This document shows positions 11,086-22,380 of a stretch of 22,380 bases of DNA, piece by piece. Below the pieces are notes generated by a model that had not been told where the DNA came from, ran no database searches, and saw nothing but the letters and a program-made list of their open reading frames with translations. Origin of the DNA: Campylobacterota bacterium. Lineage in GTDB: Bacteria; Campylobacterota; Campylobacteria; Campylobacterales; Sulfurovaceae. Positions within the stretch are counted from its first letter, which is position 1. The number at the start of each line of letters is the position of its first letter. The DNA lies in assembly GCA_034722955.1 (NCBI GenBank), contig JAYEOM010000024.1:1-22380 (forward strand), written 5' to 3'. The translations under genes and the position numbers were made by a program.

Positions 11086-13107
11086 TTAAAAATTCACTTC
11101 AAATCTATTCAGTAAAATTTCACACTCACCTATATCAAAGCTATCTACAGCTGAAGTTATCTGCATCGATATTGTCTTAAAAGATTCTATATTGTATTTA
11201 TTGCCATAGACATCTAACTCATCGGCAAATTTTTGGATCAACTCTATATCTCCGGCTATTTTAGCCTCTTTTAACAACGATACAAGAGCAGGGTGTTTGG
11301 CTAGAGAGATGTTATCTGCATCTGCATCTATATGATCATAATCACTCTCCATCATCTCTATTTTGGATTTTAAATACTTGGACATAGCGTAGATCAACTC
11401 ATAGTTTTTGATCGGTTTATTCATAAAATGATCAAATATAAGATTGTCTTCATTGCTTTTGTCAAATGCAACAGAAGCAGTTATTGCTATGATAGGTATA
11501 TCTCTGAAATCCTTGATCTCTTTTGATGCTTCAAATCCATTTTTAATTGGCATTCTAATATCCATCAATATTAGATCAATTTTATGATTTTTGACTATCT
11601 CAACAGCCTCTTGACCATCTTTGGCTTCCAGTAACTCAAGTGGAGTCTCTTTCAAGTATGCTTTTATTAAATCTCTATTTGCATCAATATCATCCACAAT
11701 TAAAACTGTAGCTTTTTCAAAAATAACTTTTGAGTTTGTCATGTTACTGTTGGGTGCGAGTATATTGCTGATTTTAATATCTCTAAGTGTAACCATAAAT
11801 ATAGAACCAGCATCTCTATCACTTTTGAGTGTAACAGTGCCACCCATCAACTCAACTAGTCTTTTAACTATAGCCAATCCAAGACCTGTACCTCCATATG
11901 CTTTGTTACTCTGCTTTGAGTGTTGCGTAAATGCTTCAAATATATGTTTTTGCTGATCTTCATCTATACCTATGCCACTATCTTCTACTGTCAGGATGAG
12001 ATTTGTAAATCTGTTATGACTAGAAGATGTAGTGATCTCAACATTGACAAATCCCTCTATAGTAAATTTGAGAGCATTACTAACCAGATTAAAAAGAATT
12101 TGCCTTACCCTGACCTCATCTACTATAAGTATATTAGGTACAGATTTATCTACATTTGTACTCAGTTTCAATGCTTTAGCTTTTGCTCTATGAGAAAAAA
12201 CATTATTGACCTCATCTGCTATGACCCTTATATCTGTTGGCACATACTCCATCTTTAGCTTTCCAGCTTCAACTTTGGAGATATCCAATATATCATTTAT
12301 GATAGTCAGTAGTATTCGTGAACTGCTTTGAACTGATCTTATATAGTTTTTATCTGTATCATTTTCAAGATTTTTTTCTAAAAGATCTGTAAAGCCTATG
12401 ATGGAGTTCATAGGAGTCCGGATCTCATGAGACATATTTGCTAAAAATTCCGACTTCATTTGATTTGCGGCATCAGCTTCATCTTTGGCTTGTTTCAGCT
12501 CTACAGTTCTGACTTCAACTATACCCTCAAGGTTCTTATTTATAGACTCTAGCGCCTCCTTGGTTCTATATAGCTCTTTGTGGGTTCTATCCATACCCCT
12601 CATGATCTTATCAAGCACAAGCCACTCCAATACGACAAATGCAGCATGGAGAAAAACTATATCCAGACCACAGCCATAGTTAAAGACCACTATAGGGGTA
12701 CCAAATATGGTTATATTGTACTCTTGGAGATAGTTAAAGATCAAGTGATGGATTATGATAAAAATGGAGGCTAGTGAAAGGATTTTATGATCTCTATAGA
12801 TAACCAAAAAAGAGAGTGCAGCAAAGATATGAAAATGCATCTCTATTCGACCTAAACTCTGCTGCATCATAATGATCGAAAATGTCAATAGAATCAAAGC
12901 GATCAGGTATCTATATGTCTGAGTCCCTCTAAATGATCTATAGGTCAAATATGTAATAGCAAATAGTATCCCGCCGCCAAATATACCAAGCGTATAGGCA
13001 TCAAACAAAAATGCTGTGACAGTAGAGACGATAATCCAGTGATAAAATACCAATTTGAGCATAAATTGATCGGCATCTTCCGATCCTTCAACCTGAAAAC
13101 TATTCAT
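11086..13107 (-). CDS. Hybrid sensor histidine kinase: His-rich multi-TM sensor - HisKA - HATPase - REC - degenerate HPt-like tail
   Basis: N-terminal ~170 aa hydrophobic with [21 protein letters not shown]-box [12 protein letters not shown] (H227), N-box [28 protein letters not shown]...MDIRMP...TA...KP. Confidence 0.96.
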
Positions 13108-13672
13108 CTATAAGCTCCTCTATATCTAAGCTTATCTGCCTGAAATCATAAGGGTAAGCACTATATATATATCTCAACTCTTTTTTATCCGCAGTTCTCT
13201 TTACTATATATAAATTTGCAGTATGGTCATACTCTAATTTATCCATCAAAGATTGAGAAAAAAATACATCAAATGCCTTCGTATAGTCTCTTAAGATATC
13301 TTTAGATAGATATATACCTTTAAAGTTAGGATTGAAAAATTCAGCAAATCTTGCAGGCAGTGTCTCATCGTAAGGAACTGATATATCAAAAAACTCAACT
13401 CCAACTCTCTCTTTTGTATCTCTATCCAAAGTATTATAAAATTCATCTATAGAGTATAATCTGGGGGTGCAGATATCACGACATCCTGCGTATCCAAAAA
13501 ATATAAGTTTTATATCTTTCTCATCACTCAAGAGAAGTGGTAGATTTACCTCTCTATTTAGCGTAAACCTTGAGACACCTTTGGTAAAAAAAGTTGGAAT
13601 GATCATTACGAGTATTGATACTGCGACTACCATAAGCAGCAAGAGAAGAGCATGAAGTTTTCTTCGTATCAT
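13100..13672 (-). CDS. SCO1/SenC-family copper-binding protein, membrane anchored
   Basis: N-terminal TM anchor; [13 protein letters not shown] (C64xxxC68) and distal [10 protein letters not shown] (H150) match the SCO Cu ligand set; overlaps the kinase start by 8 nt. Confidence 0.9.
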
Positions 13673-13681
13673 TTGATTATG

Positions 13682-15061
13682 TTACCCTTTTATCTCTACA
13701 ATCTCATCAATATTTTCCAAAAGAAGATCAACAAGTCTAGGCTCAAATGATCTGCCTCGCTCGCTTTTCATAAAATCTATAACTCTCTCCAATTCCCAAG
13801 CTTTTTTGTAGAGCCTGTCATGACTCAACGCATCAAATACATCCGAGATAGATGTTATGCGACCAAATATACTTATCTCTTCACCCTTTAGCCCTCTTGG
13901 ATAACCGGTGCCGTCCCACTTTTCATGATGTTCATAAGCTATTATGGCCGCATTTTTTAGAAGCAGATGTTTTGATTTGTTAAATATCTCCCAACCGTAA
14001 ATAGTATGTTTCTTCATCCTTTCATACTCCTCTTCTGTCAGCTCGATAGGCTTGAGCAGTATCTCATCTGATATAGCAACTTTTCCTATATCATGCATGG
14101 GTGAAGCCATCTTTAGAAGTTCTATATCCTCCTCTTTGCAGCCATAAAGACGAGCTAAAAGTTCTGAATAGAGCGAGACTCTCTTGACATGATCGCTAGT
14201 CTCTTTTGATCTCCTTTCACCAAGCTCACCTAGAGTAAAAAGAATCTCTTTTTGCGTATCTATGATATCTTTTCTGAGTTCAATCTCTTTGGTTATATCG
14301 ACTCTAAGACTAATATACTCAATGATTTCACCATTGGAGTTCAATATAGGCATCACAGTAGCATCCACAAAATAGGAGCTTCCATCTTTGGCTCTATTTT
14401 CGATATGACCGTTCCATATCTCTCTGCTCTTTATGGTATCCCACATGTTTTTAAAAGTCACTTTACTGACATTTGGGCTTCTAACTATATTGTGATTTTG
14501 ACCTATCAGCTCATCTTTGGAGTATTGAGAAATTTCACAAAATTTATCATTGACATATGTAATAATACCTTTGGTATCTGTCTTTGAAACCAGTGAACTT
14601 GCATCTACGGCTATCTTATACTGCTCCAATAAAACTTTAGTATCATGCACCTCGGATTTAAGTTTCTCTTTAGTCAAAAAGAGTTCAACATGTGTTTTTA
14701 CACGATGAAGTAACTCCTCCTCATCAAATGGCTTGGTAATATAGTCTTCACCGCCATATTCAAAACCTCTTCTGATGCTACTCTTGTTTGCATTTGCCGA
14801 TAAAAAAATGATGGGTATTTTGTTATATAATTCATCTTCTTTTATGATACTGGCCGTTTGATATCCATCTAAACCAGGCATATTTATATCTAAAAGTATC
14901 AGTGCATACTCTCTTGACTTTAACTGTTCTATCCCTTTTTCACCGCTTCTAGCAAAAAAAATATTGTAGAGATTGGTAGATTTCAAAACATTGGCTGCTA
15001 GTTGTATATTTTTTGCATTGTCATCAATAATTAAAATATTTGATCTACTGTTTATATCCAT
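13682..15061 (-). CDS. Response regulator REC-PAS-HD-GYP cyclic dinucleotide phosphodiesterase
   Basis: REC (IDD, D58 in LLDINMP, KPF); PAS (TDTKGIITYVNDKFCEISQYSKDELIGQNHNIVRS...WNGHIENRAKDG); HD-GYP (ETSDHVKRV, MHDIGK, HHEKWDGTGYP, DVFDAL, RLYK). Confidence 0.96.
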   Translation of the reverse strand: MDINSRSNILIIDDNAKNIQLAANVLKSTNLYNIFFARSGEKGIEQLKSREYALILLDINMPGLDGYQTASIIKEDELYNKIPIIFLSANANKSSIRRGFEYGGEDYITKPFDEEELLHRVKTHVELFLTKEKLKSEVHDTKVLLEQYKIAVDASSLVSKTDTKGIITYVNDKFCEISQYSKDELIGQNHNIVRSPNVSKVTFKNMWDTIKSREIWNGHIENRAKDGSSYFVDATVMPILNSNGEIIEYISLRVDITKEIELRKDIIDTQKEILFTLGELGERRSKETSDHVKRVSLYSELLARLYGCKEEDIELLKMASPMHDIGKVAISDEILLKPIELTEEEYERMKKHTIYGWEIFNKSKHLLLKNAAIIAYEHHEKWDGTGYPRGLKGEEISIFGRITSISDVFDALSHDRLYKKAWELERVIDFMKSERGRSFEPRLVDLLLENIDEIVEIKG

Positions 15062-15759: not shown

Positions 15760-16713
15760 GTGCTTAACTCCCTAGAGATACTGAATTTTCAAAATCTAAA
15801 AATAGATAATGTAAAAATCATAGATAAACCTCTAGATCAAGTTGGATTTGAGGATGAAGATGCGCTCACTGTAGTTATCCTGCGAGATCCACATGAGTAT
15901 TTTGACAATCTTCTTTTTGAATACCTCTCCAATAAAAAGAGTATACTCTTTACTCAAGATATCATCAACCATATGAAAGTACTGAAGGGTAAAGAGTTTT
16001 TGCAATGGTTTGATGGATTGTATTTTGTACCTTTCCAAAATCCGCAAACATTTCAACTAGATATCCGAAAAAGAGTACCTGAGGCTATAGAGAACCTTGA
16101 AAGTTTTGATTATGTTGTTCCCTATGAATCTATCGATACCTTTTTTGAAAAAGTCTTACCTGGTACCAAGATCATCAGAAGAGAAGAGAAGAAGTTGATA
16201 TTTTCCATGACTGCTATGAGGGGTGAAAACTTGGCAGAGAAGTTTATAGGTAAAGATATAGAACTCTATCGTAGAGCACAAGAGTTGTGGAGATTGATAG
16301 AGCAAAATAACTTTAAATCTCTAAATTCAAAACTAGAGCGAAAGAGAATTGCCCAGAGAAGAAAAGAGAAGAGGAGAGAGGAGGAGGAGTCTAAGAAGAT
16401 GGAAGAGTATAGAGGCTCTGCAGGTAGAATAGGCTCTACTTTTATAGCTGGATGGGTTTTCCACAAAAGAAGACCTGAAAAACTCATGATTGAGATCTAT
16501 AAAAATGATAACTTTTTATGCTCAGCAAAAGCAGATATCATGCGTAAAGATTTGAAAAAGAGAAATATTCACCCTACCGGAGAGTGTGGTTTTGAAGTTC
16601 GTTTTGAAGAGGAGACTTTTAGAAAAGGGGATAGTGTAGAGGTCAAGATACTACCGGACAATATCATACTTCCTCTAGGAGCTAACTCCAAAGAGTTTCT
16701 TGGCTTACAGTAG
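15760..16713 (+). CDS. Hypothetical protein: sulfotransferase-like N-terminal region, charged linker, C-terminal beta-rich domain
   Basis: 317-aa ORF starting (GTG) immediately after the dedA stop; ILRDP, NPQT, AIENLESFDYV, DIELYRRA motifs; C-terminal IAGWV...ADIMRKDL...GECGFEV. Confidence 0.7.
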   Translation: MLNSLEILNFQNLKIDNVKIIDKPLDQVGFEDEDALTVVILRDPHEYFDNLLFEYLSNKKSILFTQDIINHMKVLKGKEFLQWFDGLYFVPFQNPQTFQLDIRKRVPEAIENLESFDYVVPYESIDTFFEKVLPGTKIIRREEKKLIFSMTAMRGENLAEKFIGKDIELYRRAQELWRLIEQNNFKSLNSKLERKRIAQRRKEKRREEEESKKMEEYRGSAGRIGSTFIAGWVFHKRRPEKLMIEIYKNDNFLCSAKADIMRKDLKKRNIHPTGECGFEVRFEEETFRKGDSVEVKILPDNIILPLGANSKEFLGLQ

Positions 16714-21291: not shown

Positions 21292-21386
21292 GAGTCTAAA
21301 ATCCCATTAGACTACTGTGGCGATGACAAAGCACCATAACCCCTACCGTGAATGGCACTAAATTAAGTAGAGAAAGTAGAGAGTAG

Positions 21387-21410
21387 AGGGGTCTGGTAAC
21401 AACTACAACT
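21387..21410 (+). repeat. 24-bp direct repeat, copy 1 (AGGGGTCTGGTAACAACTACAACT)
   Basis: 23/24 identical to 22045-22068. Confidence 0.9.
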
Positions 21411-21463
21411 CTTCCCCCTCACATTAAACATACGCTAATATAACCCAAAAAGGAAAGAGCATA

Positions 21464-21736
21464 ATGCCATACCTAAAACCTCTTTTGCTTCTCCTGCTCC
21501 TCACCCTAACCCTAACCGCCAACATCCCACCACCCATACAAAGCACAACTTACGACCCCACAGGAAACCTCTCCACCATCACCCACGCTAACAATACTAA
21601 AGAACACTATAGCTATGATGATCTCAATAGACTCACAGCTATCACGCCAGCACTCTCAAGTATGCCATCCCACCAAGTGATAAAACTCTCTCCAACCATT
21701 CACCCAAAACAAGATATAATCTCCCGTACCCTTTAG
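21464..21736 (+). pseudogene. Truncated Rhs/YD-repeat protein remnant with signal peptide
   Basis: AAGGA SD; hydrophobic signal peptide; two YD repeats (TYDPTGNLSTITHANN, YSYDDLNRLTAIT), then non-Rhs sequence and a stop at 90 aa. Confidence 0.75.
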
Positions 21737-21740
21737 GTAA

Positions 21741-21944
21741 ATGGGGTAGTGTTCTTTACTTTTGTTCTTTTTAGGGTTCGGGCTTGGAAATTATAGCGTG
21801 GGTGGTAAAAATTTAGAACAAGGGTACATAGTGGAAGTAATTTCAGTATTGGCTCTTATTGTTTCTGTAGCAAAAGTCACGATTATGTGGTGGAGTTATA
21901 GAGATTGTAAGAAAGCTAAAGAAACACAGACTAAGACAAAATAG
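21741..21944 (+). pseudogene. Small hydrophobic ORF remnant (possible membrane or immunity-like gene fragment)
   Basis: 60-aa ORF 21762-21944 with hydrophobic segments; an in-frame ATG at 21741 is followed by TAG at 21747-21749; a hairpin follows the stop. Confidence 0.35.
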
Positions 21945-21953
21945 TCTCACAAG

Positions 21954-21984
21954 ATGATAGGAATTCGCACTTCCTATCATTTCT
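21954..21984. terminator. Hairpin, probable intrinsic terminator
   Basis: ATGATAGGAA-ttcgcac-TTCCTATCAT, perfect 10-bp stem, 10 nt after the stop at 21944 and between convergent genes. Confidence 0.65.
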
Positions 21985-22044
21985 GTGTACCCTTTCCATA
22001 ATTGTACAACAAAAAGATTAAATCAAAATAAAAGTCATAAATTA

Positions 22045-22068
22045 AGGGGTCAGGTAACAACTACAACT
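22045..22068 (+). repeat. 24-bp direct repeat, copy 2 (AGGGGTCAGGTAACAACTACAACT)
   Basis: 23/24 identical to 21387-21410. Confidence 0.9.
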
Positions 22069-22240
22069 AAGTATTCATAATATATTGATGGTCCATACTT
22101 AGAGGATTGTCGGGTATTAAAAATATCAATTTTTCAAGTTCATAAGCAAAATTAATACTTGCACTAACTTTATCTTTGGCTATATAATTGACAATATGTA
22201 GTAATTGCTTTTCAAAAGTCTTTTTGTAGATTATTTGCAT
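22067..22240 (-). pseudogene. RelE/ParE-family toxin, frameshifted and truncated
   Basis: Manual translation: MQIIYKKTFEKQLLHIVNYIAKDKVSASINFAYELEKLIFLIPDNP matches the ParE-like N-terminal half (YIAKD..SA..F...L). The expected continuation KYGPSIYYE is in another frame and runs into the repeat. Confidence 0.75.
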
Positions 22241-22380
22241 TTAGTTATTTGTAGATTTTAGGTGCTGGTTTATATTGTTCCACAAATCATCATGTGAAAT
22301 CATTTCAGCTTTTCCGCTTTCTACTTCTTCTAAGTCTTGATGCAATTGTTTTTGTCGTTCATAAAAATATGGGTCAAGTT
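22241..22380 (-). CDS. Probable antitoxin, C-terminal part (partial)
   Basis: Manual translation ...LDPYFYERQKQLHQDLEEVESGKAEMISHDDLWNNINQHLKSTNN*; the stop directly abuts the toxin ATG; acidic ESGK..IS.D pattern typical of antitoxins upstream of RelE/ParE. Confidence 0.7.
   Translation of the reverse strand, partial: LDPYFYERQKQLHQDLEEVESGKAEMISHDDLWNNINQHLKSTNN

Follow-up and report, generated by a model that had tools for sequence, protein, structure and literature searches.

Sco proteins are known as copper-enzyme assembly factors. What does such a protein serve when its gene lies among signalling genes? The question is raised by a stretch of 22,380 nucleotides (hereafter, the window), positions 1 to 22,380 of contig JAYEOM010000024.1 in assembly GCA_034722955.1, from a member of the Campylobacterota (family Sulfurovaceae). 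Here, a SCO gene stands between the gene for a REC-PAS-HD-GYP response regulator and the gene for a hybrid sensor histidine kinase with a His-rich membrane domain. The three open reading frames (Table 1) are transcribed in the order regulator, SCO and kinase, with a gap of 9 nucleotides between the first and second genes and an overlap of 8 nucleotides between SCO and the kinase. A sequence-only reading of this DNA had taken them for a tightly linked three-part system, in which SCO is a dedicated accessory of the kinase and the HD-GYP protein controls cyclic-di-GMP. The coordinates of the reading frames bear out the tight linkage on one strand, and inspection of the motifs confirmed that the key residues of SCO, kinase and regulator are intact. 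Our results show that the SCO follows the sensor, not CcoN or NosZ, and that the conserved unit consists of two genes, SCO and the six-helix His-rich sensor, not of three.

Distribution of the SCO gene and its linkage to the sensor

The SCO gene product scored 39.9 bits against SCO1-SenC (PF02630; cut-off, 22.8 bits), resembles a SCO of solved structure (2k6v, E value 3.6e-13), and has the SCO1/SenC architecture, namely a single N-terminal anchor and a thioredoxin-type domain with C64, C68 and the distal H150. Sco proteins bind one copper via CxxxC and the distal His, and an oxidoreductase activity has been proposed for them (PMC7558416, available part). C64, C68 and H150 were invariant in 54 of 54 sensor-linked SCOs, and seven of seven distant sensor-linked SCOs scored above the PF02630 cut-off. 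However, the scores of sensor-linked SCOs are low (36 to 58 bits, versus about 135 for ordinary Campylobacterota SCOs), and unlike ordinary SCOs, this SCO adjoins the sensor and not PCuAC or oxidase genes.

As the sequence-only reading had pointed out, the window contains no gene for cytochrome c oxidase, nitrous oxide reductase or another copper enzyme. By itself this absence proves nothing, because the source genome (G000) encodes such enzymes on other contigs: a cbb3 oxidase (C20), a clade II NosZ (C113) and a cNor (C69). Since the window SCO is the sole SCO in this genome, in which PCuAC also gave no match, a housekeeping role had to be tested. Among the 81 genomes of the same family, ccoN was over the cut-off in 71 and nosZ in 36, and both clear SCO matches and the sensor were confined to the same three genomes (G000, G004 and G008); one further genome (G469) had a single weak SCO-like match. 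The 77 family genomes without a SCO match include 67 with ccoN over the cut-off and 34 with nosZ; thus, cbb3 oxidase and NosZ are evidently assembled in this family without a detectable SCO. The same profile detected about 150 ordinary SCOs elsewhere. These counts are given without a statistic, and kin genomes are not independent. G004 has the SCO-sensor pair and no nosZ match, and three genomes (G040, G205 and G287) carry an ordinary SCO besides the sensor-linked one. The SCO thus does not show the occurrence with, or linkage to, CcoN, CoxB, NosZ or PCuAC by which a SCO for oxidase or NosZ assembly would be recognized, but follows the sensor. Most genomes of the family thus combine a cbb3 oxidase, and many of them NosZ, with no detectable SCO, which raises the question of the route of copper insertion.

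In metagenomes, SCO adjoins the sensor gene at 71 of 80 loci, these being the best 80 of 432 confirmed sensor matches, a sample biased to close relatives. When loci with enough upstream DNA were clustered, SCO was adjacent in 61 of the 67 clusters formed at 90% identity, in 18 of the 22 formed at 70%, and in 9 of the 12 formed at 60%. The two genes overlap by 4 or 8 nucleotides in 48 of the 71 adjacent pairs. In 401 Campylobacterota genomes, 164 of which have a SCO match, there were 14 full sensor genes in 13 genomes, excluding a weak, stop-containing match in G409 and leaving the G358 sensor gene outside the count; 12 of the 14 have an adjacent SCO, which in G310 lies downstream of the sensor gene. 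With a profile of the sensor-linked SCOs, 13 SCOs scored at least 130 bits and all adjoin a sensor gene (next score, 94), although only those of G205, G310 and G358 are independent because the other ten had built the profile. The pair occurs with kinase, chemoreceptor and GGDEF outputs. Outside the phylum it was found on a Marinobacter plasmid and on a Pseudoalteromonas plasmid, whose record begins and ends within the SCO-like gene, and further loci have SCO clusters named Fodinibius and Balneolaceae. The linkage of SCO and sensor, which the sequence-only reading had expected to recur in other genomes, is far above chance at these related loci.

The HD-GYP gene behaves differently. Among loci with at least 900 nucleotides upstream, an HD-domain regulator was present in 32 of 34 of the kinase type, and in 0 of 15 of the chemoreceptor type and 0 of 12 of the GGDEF type; two kinase loci carry REC-GGDEF in place of HD-GYP, and three loci with kinase and HD-GYP have no SCO. 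The HD-GYP gene is the kinase's local output partner and stands outside the sensing unit, so that a three-part architecture for control of cyclic-di-GMP was not supported.

In a tree of 62 SCO sequences, 36 sensor-linked SCOs form one side of a branch with a support of 78/83, the ordinary SCOs compared being all from Campylobacterota. An own branch of the sensor-linked SCOs is therefore weakly supported; the separate clade that the sequence-only reading had asked about is seen in the topology, and the support value neither shows nor rejects it. The sequence of the anchor helix is only loosely conserved among sensor-linked SCOs. SCO and sensor distances were correlated (0.59 overall, 0.28 among 28 diverse pairs), which we do not count as evidence because shared ancestry produces such a correlation.

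Several of the loci are unusual. In G004 (L133, on contig C67), the SCO-kinase pair, without HD-GYP, lies within the gene order carA-ddl-ccoN, and contig C20 of the source genome has the same order without the pair. This suggests that the pair is a mobile cassette. On the Marinobacter plasmid (L114, 3264-8345), genes for a Crp/Fnr regulator and a GGDEF-EAL protein come after the SCO-chemoreceptor pair, with an IS3 element nearby. The sensor gene is split from the kinase part in G008 (L134, on contig C185, 2696-5587) and interrupted in G056 (L009, 2007-3468), which in both cases is either real or an assembly error. At L080 (3677-6895), a sensor-GGDEF gene and an aa3-type oxidase operon are divergently oriented, and the operon includes an oxidase-type SCO of its own.

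The membrane domain and its predicted complex with SCO

Residues 1 to 175 of the kinase, the sensor domain, matched no Pfam or NCBIfam family over the cut-off, no PDB sequence at an E value of 10 and no Foldseek entry at an E value of 0.001, and re-alignment gave nothing more. MASE profiles matched neither the window kinase nor any of the 19 family members searched, although clusters of MASE11, MASE7 and MASE8 are among the language-model neighbours of the domain. Its relatives amount to 2265 representatives at 50% identity. In the best 150 of them, all 149 aligned rows have E89 and H91, and 142 of the 149 have H93; H121 was found in 145 of 147 rows and H154 in 144 of 145. The outputs are chemoreceptor (74), kinase (33), PAS/HD only (7), GGDEF (5), or none detected (31).

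The model of the domain has six helices, with a predicted local distance difference test (pLDDT) score of 89. In structure it comes closest to the membrane anchors of ImcA and of class III adenylyl cyclases, which may share this predicted fold, at an identity of 6-10%; the matches 8wcn (Z 11.6, root mean square deviation 3.1, 157 aligned residues), 6r3q (Z 11.5, 3.3, 154) and 8sl3 (Z 11.0, 4.0, 160) are all below the caution line of the search for helical bundles, about Z 13. The 50 fold-search matches listed include no heme-copper oxidase and no cytochrome. Since helix 6 runs into the cytoplasmic kinase, E89, H91, H93, H120, H121, H154 and the loop with C146 are probably situated in the membrane's outer half or at its periplasmic face, which is the side where the SCO domain works. 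The SCO-paired sensors add H93 and C146 to the core of the family; at least 90% of the 54 compared have C146. H23 was also considered as a core ligand and was rejected, since several SCO-paired subclades have N or Q in its place.

The sequence-only reading had proposed a structure prediction of SCO with the sensor domain as a check, and its outcome was positive. With paired alignments of 54 rows, the complex scored 0.65 and the best control 0.00; the mark of 0.65 was reached by 116 of 157 solved pairs and by 2 of 215 mismatched pairs, counts that apply roughly to alignments like these. At least 69% of the contacts were common to the runs, and the partners had pLDDT values of at least 79. The confident contacts join SCO residues 7 to 27 to the outer loop and to helices 2, 3 and 5 of the sensor, and the predicted interface includes sensor H120 against SCO S19 (numbering +6). 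The prediction supports binding of SCO to the sensor without showing it. Taken together with the linkage across outputs and phyla, the distribution of SCO and its weakly supported own branch, it speaks for the proposal that the SCO is dedicated to the sensor, and we consider this very probable.

Possible mechanism and alternatives

One possible mechanism, to which we incline somewhat, is that the docked SCO delivers or presents copper to the outer His/Glu/Cys site and that this site controls the output. SCO and the six-helix domain would then form a two-protein membrane sensor plugged into interchangeable outputs. SCO would dock on the sensor bundle through its membrane anchor, as predicted, and its periplasmic Cys-Cys-His site, to judge from the intact ligand set, would bind copper and deliver it to, or share it with, an outer-face site of H91, H121, H154 and E89, aided by H93 and C146. 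The occupancy of this site, or a ligand of the O2, NO or sulfide type on the metal, may shift helix 6 and, with it, the underlying coiled coil. In the source genome, the state of the site would set the autophosphorylation of H227 and the passing of the phosphoryl group to D516 in the kinase and D58 in the regulator, and phosphorylation of D58 would change the breakdown of cyclic-di-GMP, as expected from standard two-component chemistry and from a cognate pairing suggested by gene linkage. That the link between SCO and sensor is copper is probable; O2 or another small ligand is plausible as the signal, in view of the chemoreceptor outputs and of HtrVIII. More tentatively, the unnamed and widespread six-helix family might carry a periplasmic copper centre that is inserted by a chaperone and binds a gas or small ligand such as O2, NO or sulfide, much as the plant ethylene receptor binds ethylene, with this SCO clade reassigned to the task from the assembly of respiratory enzymes and the Cys-x-Cys partners of distant relatives acting alike.

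Some observations weigh against this mechanism or against a strict partnership. Nine of the 80 metagenome loci have no adjacent SCO; three of them are cut upstream, and the six others (L043, L074, L080, L086, L098 and L108) have none upstream, two of these being cut downstream. The sensor of G401, where only an oxidase-type SCO was seen, and the second sensor copy in G040 also have no adjacent SCO. Ten of the 13 top-scoring SCOs belonged to the scoring profile itself, and the branch of the sensor-linked SCOs has low support in a comparison restricted to one phylum. The complex prediction leaves the CxxxC domain unplaced, its confident contacts being those of SCO residues 7 to 27, and the placing of one more hydrophobic helix against a membrane bundle could be a non-specific outcome, because the controls are not stated to be membrane proteins. 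The geometry of the His cluster comes from helix positions, and the copper site is a predicted one. Furthermore, some distant sensors keep the His core with non-SCO partners or with none seen.

These distant plasmid sensors retain E/D89, H91, H120, H121 and H154 in seven aligned sequences, and the position of C146 has no Cys in seven of seven and H93 is absent in six of seven. At nine distant loci, the neighbour is a DUF6436 protein in three, a CPC-bearing thioredoxin-like protein in one, and another small membrane protein in two, and three have no evident partner; thus, the His core does not need SCO everywhere. No DUF6436-like protein was found in the source genome. Other small Cys-bearing proteins with a membrane anchor, which may be further types of partner, flank the distant sensor chemoreceptors of L173 (2330-4233) and L119 (2441-4416). 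For redB of Myxococcus, the available part of PMC2755868 reports no phenotype.

An alternative to copper delivery is a thiol-redox relay without metal transfer, in which the CxxxC of SCO exchanges with C146 of the sensor and reports the periplasmic redox state. This would explain why C146 is so frequent in SCO-paired sensors and found in none of the seven distant relatives, it fits the oxidoreductase activity proposed for Sco proteins (PMC7558416, available part), and the distant clades pair with thioredoxin-like proteins that also bear cysteines. However, L075, L079 and L090 keep SCO without C146, the copper ligand H150 is invariant in all 54 SCOs, and the relay leaves the invariant His cluster unexplained, so that we regard it as unlikely. 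About equally unlikely is that SCO is itself the ligand-binding subunit and signals its copper occupancy via the anchor helix, the His residues of the sensor holding heme or a structural metal. A stable predicted helix contact, including that of H120 with SCO S19, would suit this arrangement, and a review (PMC13401364, available part) describes the six-helix domain of HtrVIII as probably heme-binding, with a proposed role in O2 sensing. Nevertheless, the fold search led to ImcA and cyclase anchors with no heme protein among the top matches, the core His residues are all inferred to be in the membrane's outer half, and the sequence of the anchor is only loosely conserved.

A housekeeping SCO that assembles cbb3 oxidase or NosZ, and stands beside the kinase merely for co-regulation, as senC is by regBA, has a precedent: SenC is co-transcribed with regA/regB and serves the assembly of cbb3 oxidase in Rhodobacter (PMC9147068, available part). 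The window SCO is alone in its genome, which encodes CcoN and NosZ and gave no match to PCuAC, and the G004 pair lies two genes from ccoN. Nonetheless, we consider this role highly improbable: the SCO-less genomes of the family with ccoN (67 of 77) or nosZ (34 of 77) do without it, G004 has the pair and no nosZ match, three genomes carry both types of SCO, and the pair persists through swaps of the output domain. A secondary service of the SCO to the oxidase may exist. Copper delivery to the outer site by a dedicated SCO is thus the mechanism that we prefer, and it suggests an unstudied copper-dependent bacterial sensor. It offers copper as a concrete cofactor hypothesis for a large unnamed family that feeds chemotaxis, kinases and cyclic-di-GMP enzymes. 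Among cultured organisms, Marinobacter nanhaiticus carries the pair, and Sulfurimonas gotlandica has close homologues of both proteins.

Organization of the locus and comparison with known systems

The features of the locus are collected in Table 1. In the regulator, Pfam places REC at residues 9-122, PAS at 158-258 and HD_5 at 286-442, and detects no DNA-binding domain; D58 is intact, as are H323-D324, H378-H379-E380 and G386-Y387-P388, the HD, HHE and GYP motifs within HD_5 from which phosphodiesterase activity is predicted. The kinase has no Pfam family in residues 1-186, followed by HisKA (217-282), HATPase_c (330-442) with N and G boxes, and REC (468-573), with H227 and D516 present as in hybrid histidine kinases. 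Its tail (residues 575-673; window 11089-11385, minus strand) is conserved and helical over about 90 residues, has no conserved His in 14 homologues, and could represent a docking domain or a phosphotransfer domain that has degenerated. The nearest named homologues are from Campylobacterota, several of them from Sulfurimonas. The G+C content of the three-gene block is 34.7%, versus 39.6% and 41.0% in the flanks. A promoter and terminator scan did not exceed shuffled sequences (16 found; shuffle mean, 22.9), so that co-transcription is suggested by gene spacing alone.

Table 1. Coordinates of the locus features in the window
Feature	Coordinates	Strand	Basis
REC-PAS-HD-GYP response regulator, 459 amino acids (aa), predicted cyclic-di-GMP phosphodiesterase	13682..15061	-	Pfam, motifs, co-occurrence counts
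Sensor-linked SCO/SenC protein, 190 aa, with a membrane anchor at the N terminus and a thioredoxin-fold domain in the periplasm	13100..13672	-	PF02630, 2k6v similarity
Membrane anchor of SCO, aa 7-27, with predicted packing against sensor helices 2, 3 and 5	13592..13654	-	Hydropathy, predicted interface
SCO C64-x-x-x-C68 motif	13469..13483	-; third ligand H150 at 13223-13225	Invariant in 54/54
Hybrid sensor histidine kinase, 673 aa: membrane domain, HisKA, HATPase_c, REC, helical tail	11086..13107	-	
Six-helix membrane sensor domain, aa 1-175, without curated family	12583..13107	-	Model, conservation, fold match
Outer loop joining helices 5 and 6, aa 129-148, with C146 and a short hairpin; distinguishes the SCO-paired clade	12664..12723	-	

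Elsewhere in the window, a 317-residue protein without a Pfam match (15760-16713, plus strand) begins right after a DedA/VTT gene, and the end (21300-22380) has a change of GC skew and an open reading frame with YD-repeat-like sequence (21464-21736), possibly a fragment of an RHS gene.

Apart from the membrane domain, every part of the locus falls into a known family, and for a sco gene next to a sensor kinase there is a precedent in senC-regBA. Ever since the discovery of senC/prrC next to regBA, Sco proteins have been suspected of a signalling role, and the present SCO clade offers a clean test of it, because its distribution follows the sensor and not the oxidase. We found no earlier account of a clade of SCOs that accompanies an unnamed sensor through changes of output and of phylum: the literature search, whose scope did not extend to subscription journals (such as the Sco surveys of Banci), gave no paper on SCO paired with this six-helix domain, and the available parts of PMC12617631 and PMC9680633 contain nothing on the pair. 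HmrABCX of Caulobacter was considered as a precedent and rejected, since its kinase has two helices and the available part of PMC11481889 mentions no SCO.

The DUF6436- and CPC-linked sensors have a homologous membrane domain, but the partner of the window sensor is a SCO with CxxxC and His instead of a Cys-x-Cys protein, and the window sensor has H93 and the C146 loop in addition. HtrVIII (Htr8), the aerotaxis transducer of Halobacterium salinarum, has a six-helix N-terminal domain on a chemoreceptor, as do members of the sensor family, with a similar motif and a possible homology to the sensor domain. ETR1, the plant ethylene receptor, is a kinase-type membrane protein whose gas-binding copper comes from a dedicated pathway (RAN1); the likeness is one of analogy only, as ETR1 has three helices and a Cys/His site that is loaded by a P-type ATPase. 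A parallel in gene arrangement is SenC/PrrC with RegB/RegA (PrrB/PrrA) of Rhodobacter, likewise a sco gene with a six-helix membrane sensor kinase system, in which RegB reads ubiquinone and a cysteine and the RegA-type regulator binds DNA. In the window, however, the kinase is a hybrid with its own REC, the regulator is of the REC-PAS-HD-GYP type and the membrane domain has no NCBIfam match; furthermore, this SCO tracks its sensor, whose His cluster is invariant while its output varies.

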